Part shown: positions 9,791 to 60,385 of the stretch, one piece after another
How positions within the stretch are numbered: the stretch's first letter is position 1
Layout of the letters: every line of letters starts with the position of its first letter
Assembly: GCA_965232485.1 (NCBI GenBank)
Contig: OZ246975.1
Span: forward strand, 739,196-803,195
DNA: 64,000 nucleotides
Direction: 5' to 3'
Origin: Rhodothermales bacterium
GTDB taxonomy: Bacteria > Bacteroidota > Rhodothermia > Rhodothermales > VXPQ01
The notes under the pieces: generated by a model
Database searches by the model: none
What the model was told of the DNA's origin: nothing
The model's input: only the letters and a program-made list of their open reading frames with translations
Program-made: the position numbers and the translations under genes

Positions 9791-11746
9791 ATGAAAATAT
9801 CTCTCCTCCTCGCTTTGCTGATACAGACAGCCAGTCCGCCTGCGGATACGACCGAAACCGCTGCGGTCATCGAAACCGCGCTGGACATGCTGGAAAACGA
9901 CCTGGAAGATTCCGCCTCGCTGCAGGAAACGCTCGAACAGGCCGTACGCCAGAAAGTCCGGCTGGAAACCGCCTCCGCGGAAGCGTTGCGATCCATCCCC
10001 GGCATATCGGAAAGGACCGTGCAACGCCTTCTTGCCTGGCGCGACGCCGGAGGCGACCTGAGCGGGCCGGAATCTCTGTTGCGCGCCGGGCTGGACGAAC
10101 GCACCGTCGGCATGTTGCTCCCTTTCGTCGCGTTTGGGCGCCCCGAACCCCGGAGGCGCCCGCGCATCCGCATGAATCTCGTGCAGCGTTGGCAGCGACG
10201 GCTGGACCTTGGGAAAGGATATCGGGAAGATTCTCCATCCGGCTACCTCGGCTCTCCCGACGCTATGCAATGGCGCATCGGAATACGCCTCGGAGAGCAT
10301 ATCGCCGCGGGCGTTACGCTCGACAAGGACGCCGGAGAGCCTGTCCGATGGCGTCCCGACGCACGGCAATTCGGGGCCGATTTCGCCTCTTTTTACCTGA
10401 CCGTGGACCAGCGCGGCCCCTTTGAGCGAATCGCTGCAGGCAAGTACGCCGTGCAGGCGGGCGAAGGCCTTGCGGCGGGACAAGGCTCGGGGGGACTTTC
10501 TTCCTTGCGCGTATCTTCCCCGGATCGCATCCTGCGGCCCCATGCTTCCTCTCGGGAATATTCCTACTTCAGCGGCGTGGCCATCCAGTCGAAACCGCTG
10601 TACGGCGTATCGCTAACCGGTTTTGTCTCGCAACTTTCGCTGGACGCCCGCGTGGATACCTCCCTGAACGCATGGTACCCGATCTACACCGGCTATCACC
10701 GTACGCAAACCGAATACGAACGCCGAAGACAAGCCCGCGAACGCGTGGCGGGCGGGGTCGCCGTTGTCCGGCGAGGTTCCGTATACGGCGGGGTCTTGGC
10801 GCTTCATACGTTGCAGACGCTGAACGTTTCACGGAATACGCATGTCCGGTCGGTATTCGGGGGCTGGGCCCGATCTCGCTGGGAAAGCTCGTTCGAATGG
10901 ATCCCGGAACAAGGACACCGGTCCGTCACCGTCTCGCTGGCCCCGATCGAAAATGCTTCCGTGCATATCCGAACGCGACGCACCCGGGAAACCGGGCCGC
11001 GGGACCTGCGACCGCACACCCGCATCGGCGTGAATTCCCGCGGAGAAAGCTACGACTATGCCGAATGGCTGGCCGAAACCCGCTTCCGACCCTTCCCTTC
11101 CTGGACGGCGACCCTGCAAGTCCGGGACCGAAAGCGCCCGCTGGATCCGCTGCCCCGCGCCCGCAGCCGACTCGTTGCAGGAATCGTCGAATACCGTCGC
11201 TGGCGCTGGCTGACCTTGCATGTGCGGGCCCGGACGCAAACATTCGACGCGGCAAGTCAATGCCGGGACGGGCGCCTGCTGCTCCCCTGTCTTGCCGCCG
11301 AACAGCGGCAATCCCTGCGAATACAGGTCGAATACCGGCACAGCCCCGCGCTCCGCTCCAGAACCCGCCTCGAAATCGTCCGCGCCGAAGCGGAAAAAAA
11401 GGCCGAGGGCATCCTGCTGTACCAGGATTTTCGATGGAAACCCTGGCGGTTCATGCAACTGGATATACGGTACGCCCTGTTCGATGCGACAGACGCTTCG
11501 GCCCGGGTGTACATGTTCGAAAACGATGTGCTGTACGGATTCGGCGTTCCGTCTTTCAACGGACGCGGGCAGCGATGGTACGCGCTGTCGCGGATGCAAA
11601 TCTCGCGTCGCCTCATGCTGCAATGGAAACTGGGCGTCACGCGCTACGAAGACGTACGTTCTACGGGGTCAGGACGCGACGAAACCCCGGGAAACCGCAT
11701 CCGGGAAACGAAAGTCCTCATTCAATGGCGATTCGGACAAGTTTAA
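9791..11746 (+). CDS. helix-hairpin-helix (ComEA-like) domain protein fused to a large predicted beta-barrel
   Basis: Start at the ATG at 9791 (MKISLLLALLIQTA signal) within ORF 9641..11746. HhH segment ...ASAEALRSIPGISERTVQRLLAWRDAGGDLSGPESLLRAGLDERTVGMLLPFV, followed by about 500 aa of alternating-strand sequence ending ...VLIQWRFGQV. Confidence 0.7.
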   Translation: MKISLLLALLIQTASPPADTTETAAVIETALDMLENDLEDSASLQETLEQAVRQKVRLETASAEALRSIPGISERTVQRLLAWRDAGGDLSGPESLLRAGLDERTVGMLLPFVAFGRPEPRRRPRIRMNLVQRWQRRLDLGKGYREDSPSGYLGSPDAMQWRIGIRLGEHIAAGVTLDKDAGEPVRWRPDARQFGADFASFYLTVDQRGPFERIAAGKYAVQAGEGLAAGQGSGGLSSLRVSSPDRILRPHASSREYSYFSGVAIQSKPLYGVSLTGFVSQLSLDARVDTSLNAWYPIYTGYHRTQTEYERRRQARERVAGGVAVVRRGSVYGGVLALHTLQTLNVSRNTHVRSVFGGWARSRWESSFEWIPEQGHRSVTVSLAPIENASVHIRTRRTRETGPRDLRPHTRIGVNSRGESYDYAEWLAETRFRPFPSWTATLQVRDRKRPLDPLPRARSRLVAGIVEYRRWRWLTLHVRARTQTFDAASQCRDGRLLLPCLAAEQRQSLRIQVEYRHSPALRSRTRLEIVRAEAEKKAEGILLYQDFRWKPWRFMQLDIRYALFDATDASARVYMFENDVLYGFGVPSFNGRGQRWYALSRMQISRRLMLQWKLGVTRYEDVRSTGSGRDETPGNRIRETKVLIQWRFGQV

Positions 11747-11768
11747 GGATACTTCAATCAGAGCGTCC
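11747..11768. repeat. 22-bp terminal-repeat-only remnant of the IS/MITE family, flanked by TTAA/TTAA
   Basis: TTAA(11743-46) GGATACTTCAATCAGAGCGTCC TTAA(11769-72). The tips GGATAC... and ...ATCAGAGCGTCC are the family termini. Confidence 0.7.
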
Positions 11769-12164
11769 TTAATTCGAGCAGATCGACTTGAGCACCCGGC
11801 GCCTTGTGACGAGCTGGTCATGCCACGCCTCGGGCGAAATTTCTTCGTCGTCGAGATAATATTCCCAATAATCAATGCTTGCGCCCTGCGACGCCTGCGG
11901 AGGTTCGATATGCGCTATGCGCTTCAACTCGGGCGTCATGCCCATCTGGTGCACGAACGTAACCGTATGATCGCCCATGTAGCTCTCCCTGACCGATAGC
12001 CAGTTGTCCCCGCATACATGGCAGGTATAAAAACGGGTTTCCGAATGGCCTTCCTGCTCCGGCATAGTCGATTCGGTCTCTTCATCGTCTCCGACGACAT
12101 CCATCGGCACCATGCTGATGCTTCCGCAGGCCTTGCATTGCAGTTTCTCCATGGATGGAATCAT
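11769..12164 (-). CDS. small CxxC...CxxC zinc-ribbon protein, function unknown
   Basis: 131-aa ORF with CKACGS ... CHVCGD cysteine pairs, an acidic linker and coding-like composition. No family recognised. Confidence 0.6.
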   Translation of the reverse strand: MIPSMEKLQCKACGSISMVPMDVVGDDEETESTMPEQEGHSETRFYTCHVCGDNWLSVRESYMGDHTVTFVHQMGMTPELKRIAHIEPPQASQGASIDYWEYYLDDEEISPEAWHDQLVTRRRVLKSICSN

Positions 12165-28169: not shown

Positions 28170-28175
28170 GCTTAA

Positions 28176-29346
28176 GGATACTCTGATCAATCCGGTGTTT
28201 GGGGGTCAGATTGAAGGCATTGAAGGTTTCGATGCGTACAGGGAGCGATTTTTGGTCGAATCCAACGTTAAATCGTCGATATTGTCGTGTTTTTGCGCCC
28301 CGGGCGCCTCAAAACGGGGCGCTCGGGCATACCTATCGGGCGACAGCTATCAATTTCTTGCGCGCCATGTAGAAATTCGCCAGCGCAAACAGCGTATAGA
28401 CCTGCGCCGCGTTCTTGCGCAACCCCCGGTAGCGCGTCTTGCGGTAACCCCAAAGATGCTTGACCACCCCGAAGGGATGTTCTACGCGCGCGCGAATGCG
28501 GTTGCTCTTGCGATTGAACGAAGCGTCCGCGCAGGTCAGTTTCCTGCCTCTGGCCGCCTTGCGCAACACCCGCCAGGCGACGCCTTGCGACTCGGCCTGC
28601 TCCTTGCGCTTTCGGCACGCGTAGCCCTTGTCGCCGTAAATCTCCTTCTCCTCGCCGTGCAGACACTGCTCCATCATCGTCACGTCGTGCACGTTCGCAG
28701 CCGTCACCTCTACGCTGTGCACATAGCCCTGCGTGTCCGTGCCGATATGCGCTTTCATCCCGAAACGCCACTTGTTCGCCTTGCGAGTGGACTTCATCTC
28801 AGGATCGCGCGCGCCGGTGCGGTTCTTCGTAGACGCAGGAGCAGAAATGATCGTCGCGTCCACTATGCTGCCCTCGCGAACCATGACGCCGTGAGCACGA
28901 AGATGCTTGTTGCTAATCGACAGAAGCCTCTTCGTCAGCCCGCGCTCCTCGAGCCAGTGGCGAAACTTGCATATCGTCGTCTCGTCCGGCGCGTAGCCCG
29001 CGTCAAGACGAGCGAAACGACGCATCGCGATATTGTCGTGAAGAGCGTCTTCCATGCCCGGATCCGAATGACCGAACCACTGCTGCATGAAGTAGATACG
29101 AAGCATCGTTTCAAAACCGACCGGAGGACGACCCCTTGCTCCCTGCGGATAGAAAGGCTCCAACTCCGAAAGAAAAGCCTCCCATGGAAGCACCGAGTCC
29201 ATCTGCTCGAGAAATCGCTGGTTACGCGTCTTTTTCGTGCGGCTTTGGTAGGCTACGTCCTCGAATGAAAACTGGAGCATCGGATTTCCTCGATTGGTAA
29301 TGGGATATACCGTAAAATACAAACGGGGGATTAAATCAGAGTATCC
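28176..29346. mobile_element. IS5-family insertion sequence, intact, 1171 bp, TTAA target duplication
   Basis: Terminal inverted repeats GGATACTCTGATCAATCC (28176-) and GGATTAAATCAGAGTATCC (-29346). TTAA at 28172-75 and 29347-50. A single DDE transposase ORF inside. Confidence 0.9.
28333..29280 (-). CDS. IS5-family DDE transposase
   Basis: MLQFSFEDVAYQSRTKKTRNQRFLEQMD..., DATIISAP..., YGDKGY..., RARVEHPFGVVK (DDE with a conserved E region). Start taken at MLQF (29280); the ORF track extends to 29322. Confidence 0.92.
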   Translation of the reverse strand: MLQFSFEDVAYQSRTKKTRNQRFLEQMDSVLPWEAFLSELEPFYPQGARGRPPVGFETMLRIYFMQQWFGHSDPGMEDALHDNIAMRRFARLDAGYAPDETTICKFRHWLEERGLTKRLLSISNKHLRAHGVMVREGSIVDATIISAPASTKNRTGARDPEMKSTRKANKWRFGMKAHIGTDTQGYVHSVEVTAANVHDVTMMEQCLHGEEKEIYGDKGYACRKRKEQAESQGVAWRVLRKAARGRKLTCADASFNRKSNRIRARVEHPFGVVKHLWGYRKTRYRGLRKNAAQVYTLFALANFYMARKKLIAVAR

Positions 29347-29440
29347 TTAAAATACAGGAGGTACCAGAAACGTTGACAAATAAGGCGACGAGCAACGCAG
29401 AACGCCTGCGCAAGCACTGCTTCTGCGACGACTTTTTGCA

Positions 29441-32588: not shown

Positions 32589-32913
32589 CGCAGCATGTCG
32601 CGCTTCACGCGTGAAATCGAAGCGCCAATCAAAGTGGACTTAAGGATGCTCTGATCAAGTCCACTTCGCTCAGCGCATCACGTTCGCACGTACGGAACAT
32701 CATGATTGCATCGTTGAAATCAATGGAAAACGCTACGGATTCGGGGCGTTGCGTACGTGACGCGCGCTTCGGGAGGCTGCGAGGCGCACGCTGGCTGTGT
32801 CATTCCTCATTATGTGGGGCCTGCCACATTGCTTCGTCATTCCTTGCCAGCGCACCCCTCGCAAATCTCTGAGCTTTGCGGACTTGATCAGAGCATCCTT
32901 AATCAGCGTATCC
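32589..32913. mobile_element. composite: full-length 255-bp TTAA-MITE (32644-32898) nested in the terminal repeat of an older copy
   Basis: ...ACGCGTGAAATCGAAGCGCCAATCAAAGTGGAC TTAA [GGATGCTCTGATCAAGTCC...GGACTTGATCAGAGCATCC] TTAA TCAGCGTATCC. The outer halves rejoin to a canonical terminus GGAC-TTAA-TCAGCGTATCC. Confidence 0.85.
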
Positions 32914-55142: not shown

Positions 55143-55841
55143 TCAGGTCGTTTGCGATACGTTCCGGGTTGCGCTCCGGTGCCGGATATCTACGCCTTCC
55201 ACCAGAAAAACAACGATCTTGCCGATGTTTTTCGCATGATCGGCGATACGCTCGATCGACTTGCCCATATGCGCGAGGTGGACAATTTTGTCGGCCTGAT
55301 CCGGCCAGGTATGAAAAAGCGGGCCGATCATGGTCAACATTTCCTCGTACATCCGGTCCACGCGCCGGTCGTGCGCGACGATTTGTCGGGCCAGCACATG
55401 ATCTTTCCGGAAAAAAGCCTCGTGGGCGCTCCGCAACATCCAGCGCGCCTCGTCCGCAATGGCCTGAAGATTCGACACGGGCGGCATCTTGGCGGGAAAA
55501 TCGGCCAGACACACATGCTTGGCGATGTTTTTGGCGTGATCGCCTATCCGTTCCAGGTCCGTATTAACCTTCACCGCCGCGATAATGAGCCGAAGATCGA
55601 CCGCCACGGGCGTAAACAGGGCCAGAATGCGCTCGCATTGCTCGTCCACCTCCAGTTCCAATCGATCCACTTCGTCGTCGCGCTTCCACACCTCCCGGGC
55701 CAGTTCCAGGTCGTTGCCGGATACGGCGTTCATGGCGTTGGCCACCTGCGCCTCGGCCAGTTCCGACATATTGGAAAGCAATTGACGGAGCTCGGCCAAT
55801 TCGTCGTCGAGGTGTCGATTTGATTGGGTGCGTACCGTCAT
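55143..55841 (-). CDS. phoU: phosphate signalling complex protein PhoU
   Basis: Start at the ATG at 55841. Two PhoU repeats (...DLERIGDHAKNIAK..., ...SIERIADHAKNIGK...). Confidence 0.92.
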   Translation of the reverse strand: MTVRTQSNRHLDDELAELRQLLSNMSELAEAQVANAMNAVSGNDLELAREVWKRDDEVDRLELEVDEQCERILALFTPVAVDLRLIIAAVKVNTDLERIGDHAKNIAKHVCLADFPAKMPPVSNLQAIADEARWMLRSAHEAFFRKDHVLARQIVAHDRRVDRMYEEMLTMIGPLFHTWPDQADKIVHLAHMGKSIERIADHAKNIGKIVVFLVEGVDIRHRSATRNVSQTT

Positions 55842-55896
55842 GAATCCATTATCCCTGTTTGCCCTGACCGGAGCAGGCGAACCGCCGAGCCCCGAC

Positions 55897-56694
55897 CTAC
55901 CCGAATCTGCCTGTGATGTAATCTTCCGTACGCTTTCGGGCGGGACGGGTAAAAAGTTGTTCAGTGGCGTCGGCCTCAATCAACTCGCCCATGTAAAAAA
56001 ATGCGGTGCGGTCGCTGATTCTGCCTGCCTGCTGCATGTTATGGGTAACGATAATAATCGTATAGCGTTCCTTGAGTTGCAGAATCGTTTCTTCCAGCTT
56101 GGCCGTGGCGATCGGGTCCAGCGCGCTGGCCGGCTCGTCCATCAGCACGACGTCCGGGGCCACGGCCAGCGTACGGGCAATGCACAAACGCTGCTGCTGC
56201 CCCCCGCTGAGTCCGTAGGCCTGCGCATGCAGCCGGTCCTTGACCTCCTCCCAAAGCGCAGCCTTGCGCAAACATTCTTCCGCCAGCGCCGCTTCGCTGC
56301 CCTTGAAGCCATTGACGCGCGCGCCCCAGATCACGTTTTCGAAAATGGTCTTGGGAAACGGATTGGGTTTCTGGAACACCATCCCGACGCGGCGACGCAC
56401 CATGACGGGATCTGCATTGCGGTAAATGTCCCGCCCGTCAATGAGCACTCGGCCCTGGAAGCGGGCGTCCGGGATTAGCTCGTTCATCCGGTTCAGGCAA
56501 CGCAGCAACGTACTCTTGCCGCAGCCGGACGGCCCGATGAAGGCGGTCACTTCGTTGGCCTGGATGTCCAGCGAAACATCCTTGAGGACATGGTTCGCGC
56601 CGTACCAGAAGTCCAGATTTTCCACGCGGACCTTGGCCTCCTCCGACGCGCCTTGCCCGTCAACCAGCAATCCGTTTCGTTCGTTCGTTCCCAT
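55897..56694 (-). CDS. pstB: phosphate ABC transporter ATP-binding protein PstB
   Basis: 265 aa. [28 protein letters not shown] and a PstB-specific N-terminus. Confidence 0.97.
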
Positions 56695-56712
56695 GAAATG
56701 CCTTGCCTTTGG

Positions 56713-57591
56713 TTATCTCCCCCGGTACTTCTCGAAGTAATTCCGCAACAGAATCGCGCTCAGATTCATCAGGAAGAGCACGATCATCAATATAATAATG
56801 CCTGCGGCGGCCAACGCCTGGAAATCCGCTTGCGGACGCGCCGTCCAGTTGAATATCTGAATGGGCAACACCGTGAACGGGTCCAGTACGCTCGCGGGCA
56901 GGAATGCGATGAACGTCAGGGCGCCGATCATGATAAGGGGCGCCGTTTCTCCAATGGCCCGGCTCAACGCCAGAATCACGCCCGTGAGGATGCTTGGAGC
57001 CGACATGGGCAGCAAATGACTCCAGACCACCTGCCGCCGCGTAGCGCCGAGCGCAAAGGCGCTTTCCCGAATCCCCGCAGGAATGGCCCGCAACGCCTCC
57101 TGGGAGCTAATGACGATGATGGGCAAAATCAGCAGGGCCATGGTCAAGGCCCCCGCCAGCAGGCTGCGTCCAAGGGCAAAGAAGCGCACGAAAAGCGTCA
57201 GGCCCAGGATGCCGTAGACCACCGAAGGAATGCCTGCAAGATTGTTTATGTTGATCTGGACGATCTTCAGGAACCAGCTCCGCGGCGCATATTCTTCAAG
57301 GTACAGGGCCGACGCCACCCCGATGGGAACGGATATGCCCGCGGTGAGCAGAATCATCCAGAGCGAACCGACGATGGCGGACTTGATTCCGGCGCGCGCC
57401 GGAATGCGCGAAGGAAAATGGGTGAAAAACTCCCAATCGAGCCATTGCCCGCCTTGCACGATCACGTCCACGATCAGCGTGACAAGCACGACCAGGCCGG
57501 ATGACGTGGCCAGAAACAGCAACACGCTGAACATCAGCCCCCTGCGGCGACGGCGCTCAAGGCGCTCGTTGTATTGTTGCGAGGAGGTCAC
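56713..57591 (-). CDS. pstA: phosphate ABC transporter permease PstA
   Basis: 292 aa. EAA loop ...ESAFALGATRRQVVW... and six TM segments. Confidence 0.95.
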   Translation of the reverse strand: MTSSQQYNERLERRRRRGLMFSVLLFLATSSGLVVLVTLIVDVIVQGGQWLDWEFFTHFPSRIPARAGIKSAIVGSLWMILLTAGISVPIGVASALYLEEYAPRSWFLKIVQININNLAGIPSVVYGILGLTLFVRFFALGRSLLAGALTMALLILPIIVISSQEALRAIPAGIRESAFALGATRRQVVWSHLLPMSAPSILTGVILALSRAIGETAPLIMIGALTFIAFLPASVLDPFTVLPIQIFNWTARPQADFQALAAAGIIILMIVLFLMNLSAILLRNYFEKYRGR

Positions 57592-57594
57592 AAA

Positions 57595-58545
57595 TCAGTA
57601 CCGTTCGCGGTATTTGCGAATGATGAGGTTCGCCATAAAATTCATGCCCAGGGTCATCAGAAACAGCACCAGGCCGACGGCGAAGAGGCTGTAGAATTCG
57701 ACCGTCCCCTGCGGCGTATCCCCCAGACTCACATTCACGATGAAAGCCGTCATGGTCTGTACCGATTCCGTGGGATTCGCCGTGAGATTAGGCATGGCCC
57801 CGGCGGCCAGCGTTACGATCATCGTCTCGCCGACAGCACGGCTGAGCGCCAGAATAAAACTCGCCACGATGCCACTGATCGCGCCAGGAACCATGACCCG
57901 CAACACCACCTCGATCCGGGTGGCGCCAAGTGCATAGGCCCCCTCGGCAAGCGAGCGGGGCACCGCGCGAATCGCATCTTCGCTCAATGAAGACACCATG
58001 GGAATGATCATGACGCCTACCACAATGCCCGCGCTGAGCGCATTGTAGATATTGAGGCCCGGGATAAACGTCTGCAACAAGGGCGTCACGAAGGTCAGCG
58101 CGAAATAACCGTAGACGACGGTCGGTATGCCTGCAAGCAGTTCAAGACCCGGCTTCAGCGCCTTGCGTATACGCGAGGGGGCGTATTCGGCGATGAAAAT
58201 CGCGCTCATGAGCCCGATCGGAAGCGCCACAATGGCTGCAATGACGGTAACGAGAAGGGTGCCCGACAACAGAGGCCATATCCCGAAATGCTTCTCTGTG
58301 AACTGCGGAGTCCATCGTGTTTCGGTCAGAAAATCGACAATGGAAACCTCTGCAAAAAAATTCAGCGATTCAAAAACGAGGACGGCGGCAATTCCCAGTG
58401 TCGTCAGAACACTGATCAGCGCGCAAAAGCCCAATGCATACTCGACTGCACGTTCTTTCGGGCTACGAAACACGTTGACGGACAGGTCCGCACCACCGGG
58501 CGACCCCGCGAGCGATCTTTTCGACACATGCTGTGAGACGGCCAT
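57595..58545 (-). CDS. pstC: phosphate ABC transporter permease PstC
   Basis: Start at the ATG at 58545 (MAVSQHVSKR...), because the ORF track's 5' extension is MITE sequence. ...EGAYALGATRIEVV... EAA loop. Confidence 0.95.
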   Translation of the reverse strand: MAVSQHVSKRSLAGSPGGADLSVNVFRSPKERAVEYALGFCALISVLTTLGIAAVLVFESLNFFAEVSIVDFLTETRWTPQFTEKHFGIWPLLSGTLLVTVIAAIVALPIGLMSAIFIAEYAPSRIRKALKPGLELLAGIPTVVYGYFALTFVTPLLQTFIPGLNIYNALSAGIVVGVMIIPMVSSLSEDAIRAVPRSLAEGAYALGATRIEVVLRVMVPGAISGIVASFILALSRAVGETMIVTLAAGAMPNLTANPTESVQTMTAFIVNVSLGDTPQGTVEFYSLFAVGLVLFLMTLGMNFMANLIIRKYRERY

Positions 58546-58556
58546 ACGTCTGTGAA

Positions 58557-58978
58557 GGATGCTCTGATTAAGGAAGCTCTGATTAAGTCCGCAAAGATTC
58601 AGAGGCTGACAGGCGTGCGCTGGCAAGGAATGACGAAGAAGCGTGGCAGGCCCCACGTAATGAGGAATGACACAGCCAGCGTGCGCCTGTCAGCCTCCCG
58701 AAGGGCGCTTCACGACCGCGACAACCCGAATCCGCCGTGTTTTTCGCTGATTTCAACGATGCAAGCATGTCCTTTTGTACGCGTGAAAGTGAAGCGCTGA
58801 TCAAAGTGGAGTTAATCAGAGCTTCCTTAAGTCCGCAAAGATTCAGAGGCCGAAGAGCGCTTCACGACCGCGACGACCCGAAGCCGCCGTGTTTTTCGCT
58901 GATTTCGACGACGCCATCATATCGTTCTGTACGCGTGAACGTGAAGCGCTGATCGAAGTGGACTTGATCAGAGCATCC
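58557..58978. mobile_element. composite: full-length 255-bp TTAA-MITE (58572-58826) nested in the terminal repeat of an internally deleted older copy
   Basis: TGAA GGATGCTCTGA TTAA [GGAAGCTCTGATTAAGTCC...GGAGTTAATCAGAGCTTCC] TTAA GTCCGCAAAGATTCAGAGG...GGACTTGATCAGAGCATCC TGAA. Confidence 0.88.
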
Positions 58979-58987
58979 TGAAATACC

Positions 58988-60091
58988 CTATTCGCTTACA
59001 GGTTGAGAGAGAAGCGAATCGGGCGCCTCGGAGTCAAGTCCCCCGGATGATAATTCCGCAGACATATACCGCGTCAACAGTTCATGCATAGTCACGCCCA
59101 CATGCGCTTCTTCGCCGAACATAGTACCTGTGACACGGCGCTCGAAACGCTCCAGCGCGAGATCGTATTCCTCATCGGTGAGCGGAACATAACCCACTTC
59201 CCCGGCCAACTCTCCGGCGCGGGTAAGGTAAAAATGGACAAACTCCCGGACAATCTCTTCTTCGGCGGCAACGGGACGCACATATATGAACAGCGCGCGG
59301 GAAAGCGGCGCATACGTACCGTTTTCGACTGTCGCGGGCGTAGGCAACACACACCCCTCCCCATTCTCCGGATCGCCGTCATCGATGGCGAGCAATTTGA
59401 GCCGCTCCGCGTTTTCCTCGTAATAAGCGATACCGAAAAATCCAAGGGCATGGGGATCGCCGGAAACACCCTGCACAAGCACGTTATCATCCTCGCTTGC
59501 CGTAAAATCGGATCGGCTGGCGCCCGACTCGCCCCCTACGGCTTCGGTAAAATAATCATACGTACCGCTGTCCGTGCCAGGACCATACAAGGCAAGCTCG
59601 CGATCGGGAAAACCGGGACGCACCTCGTTCCAGTTGTCGATACTGCTGCCGGGCTCCCAGATCGCCCGCAGTTCGTCCACCGTCAGGCAATCGGCCCAAT
59701 CGTTGTCAGGATGCACAACCACCACCAAACCGTCGTACGCCACCGGCAGTTCGACAAAATCGATCCCATCGCGCGAAGCCAGTTCCAGCTCGCTGGATTT
59801 GATGACCCGGGAGGCATCGTTTATATCGGTCTCGCCCCGGAGGAATTTGCTGAATCCGCCGCCCGTGCCGCTAACGCCCACTGTGACCCGGGCTTGCCCA
59901 TGGGCGATCATGAATTCTTCGGCGACGGCTTCCGTAATCGGATACACCGTACTGGAGCCGTCGATCCGAACCGCGCCGGAGAGTTCGCCCTCGACGGGTT
60001 TGTCGCCGCAGCCGCTCGCTACCGCCACAAGAGCGAACAGCAATGCGGACAGCGCGGCGCGGGGCAAGAAACGTAGTGTGGGTGCGATCAA
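58988..60091 (-). CDS. pstS: phosphate ABC transporter substrate-binding lipoprotein PstS
   Basis: ...[15 protein letters not shown] lipobox, [30 protein letters not shown]. Start placed at the TTG at 60091, because the ATG at 60178 lies inside the Pho-box-like repeats. The start is uncertain. Confidence 0.88.
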
Positions 60092-60165
60092 AACAGTGGC
60101 GAAGGAAAGCGATGAATGCAGAAAGTCCCCGGAGTAATAATGTACGATAGGAAGTAATCTATCAG

Positions 60166-60186
60166 AAAATGTTACCAAAATGTTAA
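60166..60186 (-). promoter_or_regulatory. Pho-box-like pair of 11-bp-phased direct repeats upstream of pstS
   Basis: Minus strand reads TTAACATTTTG GTAACATTTTC (plus strand AAAATGTTAC 60166-75, AAAATGTTAA 60177-86). The 7+4 layout at 11-bp phasing is that of PhoB-type boxes. Confidence 0.4.
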
Positions 60187-60385
60187 TTTACCTGATTTTG
60201 ACAAAAAGCGCATAAATACGCTGGAGCGCGGCAGTGCGCTCGCTGGCCCACCCAAAGCATCCCGTCTCCCGTAACGCCTGCTGCGCGGCAGGCCGGCAGG
60301 CAACGGAACGAGACCCGCTGCCTCTCGTTCCATGCGCACGCGTCCAATATAACGACCCGCCGCCCTGCGAACCGCCGCGTTCATC

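Follow-up and report, generated by a model that had tools for sequence, protein, structure and literature searches.

Two-step nesting of IS5-derived miniature elements in the pstS-pstC spacer of a Rhodothermales phosphate-uptake operon

How did the short spacer between pstS and pstC of a phosphate-uptake operon come to hold two mobile elements, one inside the other, and what would this mean for the genes downstream? The locus lies in a 64,000-nucleotide stretch of DNA (hereafter the window) from a Rhodothermales bacterium (GenBank assembly GCA_965232485.1, contig OZ246975.1), which corresponds to G000:C1:739196-803195 of a 3.16-Mb single-contig genome with 60% G+C. We refer to this source genome as G000 and to the relatives compared with it by further G numbers (G002-G005, G008-G011 and others), with contigs written as in G008:C1. 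The two elements are MITEs (miniature inverted-repeat transposable elements) of one family. Taken as a whole, the account that we consider probable is a two-step nesting of these MITEs, mobilized in trans by a resident IS5-family insertion sequence (IS), steered by the availability of TTAA target sites and tolerated by an operon that is transcribed through the insert.

Reading window positions 58400-59100, we found that the 442-nt gap between pstS and pstC holds, in this order, TGAA, an 11-bp tip, TTAA, a 255-bp copy, TTAA, a 148-bp remainder and TGAA. The composite measures 422 bp and, together with its duplications, takes up 430 of the 442 nt, so the remark in a preliminary description of this DNA that it fills nearly the whole gap was accurate, and every coordinate given there was borne out to the base. 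On the plus strand, the outer element begins after the left TGAA target-site duplication (58553-58556) with the 11-bp tip GGATGCTCTGA of its left terminal inverted repeat (58557-58567), which the inner insertion has severed. The TTAA that follows (58568-58571) occupies positions 12-15 of the outer terminal repeat and is both the target and the left duplication of the inner copy. The inner copy is a full-length, 255-bp MITE on the plus strand (58572-58826) whose terminal repeats, GGAAGCTCTGATTAAGTCC and GGAGTTAATCAGAGCTTCC, agree at 18 of 19 positions. Its best paralog is 97% identical to it, and both repeat search and folding identified in it a central palindrome at 58602-58697 with 23-nt arms and a 50-nt loop. 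After the right TTAA duplication (58827-58830), the 148-bp remainder of the short outer MITE (58831-58978, plus strand) ends with the right terminal repeat GGACTTGATCAGAGCATCC, followed by the right TGAA duplication (58979-58982). The repeat search of the locus also recovered 23-nt terminal inverted repeats and a 133-nt stretch that the inner and outer bodies share as a direct repeat (88% identity). The open reading frames (ORFs) inside the two elements (255 bp and 163 bp) are all spurious, and an Rfam search of the element gave no match, the sole hit being a chance microRNA (E = 0.93).

We then compared the spacer among relatives. Thirty relatives were searched with the locus, and the spacer could be read in nine congeners. 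Seven of them (G002, G003, G004, G005, G009, G010 and G011) have an empty site, a 16-nt spacer with one TGAA that reads, on the plus strand of the window, pstC ATG, ACGTCTG-TGAA-ATACC, pstS stop. The empty allele equals that of G000 minus 426 bp with one TGAA kept, and the seven empty sites thus fix the outer boundaries and the TGAA duplication that had been proposed for the outer copy. The eighth congener, G008, carries an orthologous 163-bp outer copy at the same TGAA (G008:C1:2233853-2234207). Its left end reads GGATGCTCTGATTAAGTCCGCAAAGATTCAGAGGCCGA uninterrupted: the tip that is severed in G000 is here continuous with TTAAGTCCGCAAAG, the TTAA of the left terminal repeat is single, and the intact terminus is GGATGCTCTGATTAAGTCCGCAAAGATTCAGAGG, as the preliminary description had predicted. 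G008 has a different secondary insertion of its own: a family member of 187 bp, of the GGATACTC subtype, interrupts the outer copy in its middle (G008:C1:2233940-2234126), with CTAA on one side and TTAA on the other. The G008-type arrangement was also independently assembled in an Illumina contig, LXNJ01000120.1, from a metagenome of the sponge Petrosia ficiformis (Horn et al. 2016, PMC5099237). Both G008 and this contig carry GGATGCTCTGATTAAGTCCGCAAAG uninterrupted at the pst locus, and the inner 255-bp copy is absent at this position from both.

The alleles compared show an order of events that upholds the proposed nesting. In a first event, shared by the G000 and G008 alleles, a short 163-bp IS5-derived MITE inserted at the TGAA in the 16-nt spacer and duplicated it. 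In a second event, confined to the G000 lineage, a full-length 255-bp member entered the TTAA at positions 12-15 of the left terminal repeat of the first element, duplicating the TTAA and leaving the 11-bp orphan tip. The comparative series of empty site, single insertion and two secondary insertions is unusually complete, and the transposition history that it records is well documented but ordinary.

When the secondary insertions were removed by script, the outer copies in G000 and G008 matched at 157 of 164 positions. They are mutual closest relatives (96-97% identity), the best paralog reaching 90% in G008, 89% in G010 and 88% in G000, and they therefore descend from a single insertion. Two independent insertions at one TGAA hot spot would account for the fact that the pstA, pstB and phoU of G008 are much closer to those of empty-site G010, G002 and G005 than to those of G000, so that a single gain needs later losses or an exchange of alleles; in addition, a conserved hairpin immediately precedes the site and might draw insertions to it. 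We nevertheless consider independent insertion very improbable: position, orientation, short form and duplication are identical in the two genomes, no paralog in G000, G008 or G010 exceeds 90%, and the locus is demonstrably mosaic, which permits a shared allele. G000 and G008 are about 74-81% identical over the syntenic 64 kb and 90-98% identical over pstC-pstS, and the number of synonymous substitutions per synonymous site (dS) between them is 0.24 for pstC versus 0.80 for pstA. In the window, the pstC-pstS segment (~57560-60020) is 90-98% identical to four congeners and the rest of the operon and of the 64 kb 74-86%. G008 and G010 are 100% identical over 57758-58350, most of pstC, though G010 has an empty site. 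These contrasts in identity across the window mark the pst locus as a recombination mosaic and indicate that species have recently exchanged the pstS-pstC segment by homologous recombination. The tandem tip could, on the other hand, owe nothing to transposition and reflect the normal structure of the element's end, recombination between copies, or misassembly of a repeat-rich metagenome-assembled genome (MAG); judging by its relatives, the genome does come from a metagenome-assembled lineage. This reading is close to refuted. The arrangement of tip, TTAA and new terminus was found at ~12 of 309 recognizable termini and in none of the 45 other near-full-length copies of the genome, so it is not how every copy ends, a possibility on which the preliminary description had let its reconstruction depend. 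Moreover, the TTAA duplications are perfect and lie exactly at the TTAA of the terminal repeat, the genome has three further clean insertions of this type, and at the pst locus two independent assemblies from the G008 lineage show a nested architecture.

What are these elements? The 255-bp unit gave about 200 BLAST high-scoring segment pairs in the 3.16-Mb genome. All 46 near-full-length copies start with GGAWGCTCTGATTAAGTCC and finish with its complement. The 4-bp flanks are identical in 28 of them and differ by one mismatch in eight more, against a chance expectation of 0.5% for identical flanks. Fifteen of the 28 identical flanks are TTAA, and the others are TATA, ATAA, TTTA, GTAA, TAAA, CTAA and TTAT. 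TGAA/TTCA, as at the outer copy, adjoins 10 of 309 family termini, and TTAA adjoins 93. The family thus combines short length, lack of coding capacity, terminal inverted repeats, 4-bp duplications at many loci, an autonomous partner and filled as well as empty sites, the hallmarks of MITEs. A short subfamily of ~163 bp (n = 17) lacks the central palindrome with 23-nt arms and occurs at varied loci with its own duplications. Long perfect palindromes are deletion-prone, and the short copies show several distinct deletion junctions; the junction of the outer copy, GAGGCCGAAGrG, recurs with small variants in four other copies. The outer copy had been described as older and internally deleted. That it is older and shorter holds; the G008 ortholog has the same short form, so the outer copy was most likely already short when it inserted.

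Filled and empty orthologous sites show that the family is mobile. Most of the copies in the window are absent at the syntenic G008 positions, and vice versa. In G008, another family copy of 254 bp lies close upstream of pstS (G008:C1:2235535-2235788), and an intergenic gap that holds a 188-bp copy in G008 (G008:C1:2183826-2184013) retains only 22 bp of one, between two TTAA, at the syntenic place in G000 (window 11743-11772). The family was present in each of the 11 other genomes of the genus that were searched, and an exact-match scan for its terminus found it only in the Rhodothermales MAG chromosomes OX638293 and OX638295; as far as we searched, it is confined to one genus of sponge-associated Rhodothermales.

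We next considered the source of the transposase. The window contains an intact 1171-bp IS5-family IS on the minus strand (28176-29346), flanked by TTAA at 28172-28175 and 29347-29350 and absent at the syntenic position in G008. It is one of 12 copies in the genome that are at least 98% identical, with ends GGATACTCTGATTTAATCC and GGATTGATCAGAGTATCC (terminal repeat GGATACTCTGATTTAATCC) and 4-bp duplications that include TTAA, TTGA, TAAA, TGTA, CTTA and similar tetranucleotides. A single ORF encodes a 329-amino acid protein that matches NF033581 (IS5-family; 332 bits against a cut-off of 140) and PF01609 (108.7 bits). Its identity to every plasmid-borne IS5 relative stays below 60%; for the eight best among the matches listed it is 48-50%. 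The element has the architecture of the IS5 group, namely ~1.2 kb, one DDE transposase ORF, ends that start with GGA and 4-bp duplications at A/T-rich, palindrome-like targets, and it resembles other IS5 elements in having short non-coding derivatives that share its ends. The consensus target of IS5 is YTAR/CTAG; the target here differs in centering on TTAA. Because the IS and the 255-bp repeat share their ends and their 4-bp duplications, we take the repeat to be the MITE family of the resident IS5-family element. Both MITEs would then have been moved in trans by its transposase, for which the IS at 28176-29346 is the likely source.

Does the family prefer its own ends? TTAA lies at positions 12-15 in 179 of 309 termini; in the genome as a whole it is scarce, with 2289 sites in 3.16 Mb. 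About 1149 sites fall outside approximate gene calls; 200 are inside family members and 75 abut them, so that ~12% of the TTAA sites of the genome are in or directly beside this repeat family, and the terminal repeats of the family supply about one sixth of the non-coding sites. Clean insertions into a terminal-repeat TTAA were found at this locus, at genome positions 118226 and 772108, and, in the form of a full IS, at 464376; up to five further cases are degenerate. Per site, terminal-repeat TTAA were hit at 2.2-4.8%, and TTAA elsewhere in non-coding DNA at 4.2-4.6% (Fisher p = 0.16-0.69). We therefore rejected an additional preference of the transposase for its own terminal repeat. An excess of self-targeting appears only if coding TTAA are counted (p = 0.014 in the loosest count), where insertions are purged. 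The statement in the preliminary description that the family carries its own preferred target holds in that TTAA is part of most termini, but not in the sense of a self-preference beyond other non-coding TTAA. The statistics show that nesting is what simple TTAA availability predicts, the elements acting as safe landing pads that carry the target; nesting would follow from the supply of a preferred target by the ends of the family itself. The case at genome position 772108 also lies in the window: there, a 255-bp copy (32644-32898) has entered another copy (cluster at 32607-32913) at the TTAA of its right terminal repeat, so that an 11-bp tip, TCAGCGTATCC, is orphaned at 32903-32913. G008 has none of this cluster at the syntenic position.

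The host operon is well defined. All of its genes lie on the minus strand: pstS, which encodes the phosphate-binding protein (58988-60178, stop codon at 58988-58990; TIGR02136, 275 bits), pstC (57595-58545; TIGR02138, 289 bits), and pstA, pstB and phoU (55143-57591; TIGR00974, TIGR00972 and TIGR02135). Each of the five scored above its curated NCBIfam cut-off. The pstC start is the conserved ATG at 58545, from which all four relatives compared align at residue 1; the ORF finder instead begins pstC at a GTG (58656) within the MITE, an artifact that adds 37 repeat-derived codons. These matches and alignments agree with the operon identity, pstS stop and pstC start given in the preliminary description. 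The genome has a single pst operon, with one PstC and one PstS above the cut-off, and all five genes are intact in both genomes that bear the MITE (G000 and G008); pstA, pstB and phoU are intact in each of the five genomes compared. Between the G000 and G008 alleles, the ratio of nonsynonymous to synonymous substitution rates (dN/dS) is 0.066 for pstC, 0.072 for pstA and 0.079 for pstB, and the value for pstC places that gene under purifying selection.

Two features at the ends of pstS bear on transcription. Upstream of the gene (window 60160-60200, minus strand), we observed two TAACATTTT repeats 11 bp apart. The paired repeats fit a putative Pho-box promoter, and they agree with a true pstS start that probably lies downstream of the listed TTG; no other promoter is evident upstream of pstS. 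Over the pstS stop lies a native hairpin (58986-59023, minus strand) with 11 of 12 base pairs, followed by UAUUUCA. Its predicted energy is -21.4 kcal/mol (z = -2.6), and among eight congeners its loop varies but its stems do not. It was in the UUCA of this tail that the outer MITE inserted. The hairpin may itself be a device that sets the levels of pstS versus pstCAB; nothing relevant to hairpins between pstS and pstC turned up in a limited literature search.

We then asked how the insert might affect expression. On the mRNA strand, the composite is predicted to fold with -217 kcal/mol (z = -7.7) into a structure closed by two terminal-repeat stems, the outer one of 13 bp and the inner one of 18 bp. 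A terminator scan of the same strand gave one weak site (58657-58642, a 5-bp stem with the tail CUUCUUCGUC), compared with 1.3 +/- 1.2 in shuffled sequences, which falls short of the G+C-rich hairpin and U-run of an intrinsic terminator. Also on the mRNA strand, a sigma-70-like match, TTCACG-18-TATGAT, lies inside the outer copy (58945-58916). Throughout G000, with genes called approximately by a home-made program, copies of the family that lie between co-directional genes favor one orientation by 40:19 (binomial p = 0.009), and both copies at the locus have this favored orientation. Replication-strand bias was rejected as the cause of the imbalance (31:13 at leading-strand and 9:6 at lagging-strand genes). 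A terminator active in the disfavored orientation was likewise unsupported, the CACG...CGUG hairpin and U5 of module B folding like shuffled sequences. The single-copy intact operon, the purifying selection on pstC and the lack of a convincing terminator on the mRNA strand together make read-through likely. Transcription from the promoter upstream of pstS would run through 426 extra nucleotides, which in the mRNA would fold into one large closed structure, and pstCAB-phoU would still be expressed. The insert is thus most likely a tolerated passenger that would at most shift the pstS:pstCAB ratio.

Several points weigh against this account. Between G000 and G008, the outer copy differs at 7 of 164 positions and the adjacent 4-fold degenerate sites at 22 of 107 (p = 3e-5), and each adjacent 100-bp coding window has 6-14 differences. 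A divergence some five times lower than that of 4-fold neighbors is not predicted for a neutral passenger; either the element is constrained, or the flanks imported their divergence from empty-site alleles by recombination that could not cross the insertion. The 64-kb syntenic stretch of G008 contains no second full orthologous MITE pair, so the low divergence rests on one locus. Read-through and the expression of pstCAB-phoU are inferred from gene integrity and purifying selection only. Translational coupling, possible across a 16-nt spacer, would be removed by the insert, and some effect on pstC output is plausible. Finally, the inner insertion is known from one assembly, G000, and no other assembly with an identical PstB protein is on record.

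In other readings the insert matters. The preliminary description had raised, as a possibility, that the composite decouples or differentially stabilizes pstS versus pstCAB-phoU expression. In this vein it is possible, and we put it forward tentatively, that the composite is co-transcribed and then cut by ribonuclease (RNase) III or RNase E at or near the terminal-repeat stems, with the pstS fragment shielded by 3' stem-loops, so that the pstS:pstCAB-phoU ratio would rise relative to the 16-nt spacer. Such a post-transcriptional effect is compatible with the nesting history and differs from the tolerated-passenger account only on whether the insert matters. The strong predicted fold with its closing stems, the conservation of the outer copy relative to 4-fold sites, the 40:19 orientation bias and the independent gain of a second insertion by the spacer element in two lineages all speak for it, as does precedent: RNase III cuts the terminal repeats of Correia elements, and enterobacterial repetitive intergenic consensus (ERIC) elements alter transcript levels in Yersinia (PMC10969869). 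Arguing the other way, all congeners have the conserved native hairpin at the pstS 3' end, so the ratio may be set with no MITE at all; two substitutions in the right terminal repeat of G008 break its pairing and are uncompensated; recombination with empty-site alleles in a mosaic locus can explain the low divergence; and seven of the nine congeners with a readable spacer have it empty. A stronger version, in which the spacer MITE has been adopted by the host as a selected, structured RNA spacer that sets the binding-protein:permease ratio in sponge symbionts, fits the ~5-fold lower divergence, the roughly 2:1 orientation of the family and the enlargement of the spacer in two lineages independently, but we regard it as doubtful. 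That the composite is instead polar, ending most transcription from the pstS promoter while a promoter inside the element drives pstCAB-phoU uncoupled from pstS, seems improbable to us. The sigma-70-like match and the terminator-like hairpin would supply the necessary signals, but both are weak, the terminator count lies below the shuffle mean, and the promoter-like site is missing from the equivalent stretch of the inner copy; moreover, this phylum may not use sigma-70-type consensus hexamers. Both copies also have the orientation best tolerated between co-directional genes, and for the Chunjie MITE in a phosphate-uptake operon of Geobacter, secondary accounts report no disturbance of the operon (PMC10969869, PMC3184786).

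The Chunjie family is the closest parallel that we found to the tolerated nest at pstS-pstC. As relayed in those accounts, a copy in Geobacter uraniireducens Rf4 lies inside a phosphate-uptake operon whose structure is reportedly undisturbed (Chen et al. 2008, Genetics 179:2291, via PMC10969869 and PMC3184786). From what these sources relay, Chunjie is, as here, a MITE (~235 bp) with terminal inverted and direct repeats, tens of copies, shorter variants, a very stable predicted RNA fold and one copy in such an operon; it differs in its 9-bp duplications, 21-bp terminal repeats, A+T richness and host, a deltaproteobacterium with two phosphate-uptake operons. The family described here has 4-bp duplications, mostly TTAA, an identified IS5-family parent, a single-copy operon and a nest of two elements. 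What the two cases have in common is insertion somewhere within a phosphate-uptake operon. On those accounts, MITE insertion into such an operon has been published before and is not new as a type. Insertion into a MITE likewise has a precedent in the BrickBuilt elements of Porphyromonas gingivalis (PMC5771137). Correia elements in Neisseria and ERIC in Enterobacteriaceae are co-transcribed MITEs whose terminal-repeat stems are RNase targets and alter transcript levels (PMC10969869). We take them as the model for whatever effect the pst composite may have; they differ in transposase family and duplication length.

A further analogy is offered by the repetitive extragenic palindromes (REPs) and bacterial interspersed mosaic elements (BIMEs) of E. 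coli, which act as stabilizers after the binding-protein genes of ATP-binding cassette (ABC) transporter operons (malE-malF and pstS-pstC), where differential mRNA stability sets subunit ratios. The pstS-pstC case was reportedly described by Aguena and colleagues in 2009 (cited in PMC3333891). In both settings a structured repeat directly follows the binding-protein gene and precedes the permease genes. However, REPs are 35-40-nt hairpins tied to a Y1 (HUH) transposase and not terminal-repeat elements mobilized by a DDE enzyme, and in the operon studied here the native hairpin already holds that position.

For the biology of the family, the series seen among these sponge-symbiont genomes, from an empty site through a single insertion to two distinct secondary insertions into one element, fixes the ends, duplication length and target of an undescribed IS5-derived MITE family without experiment. 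For annotation it carries a warning, as the MITE lengthens the apparent pstC ORF by 37 codons. For the organism, a 16-nt spacer inside an operon has absorbed 426 nt of strongly folding DNA while the only phosphate ABC transporter of the cell has stayed intact. If the insert does act on the transcript, the locus would be an added case of a MITE that tunes subunit ratios in an ABC-transporter operon.

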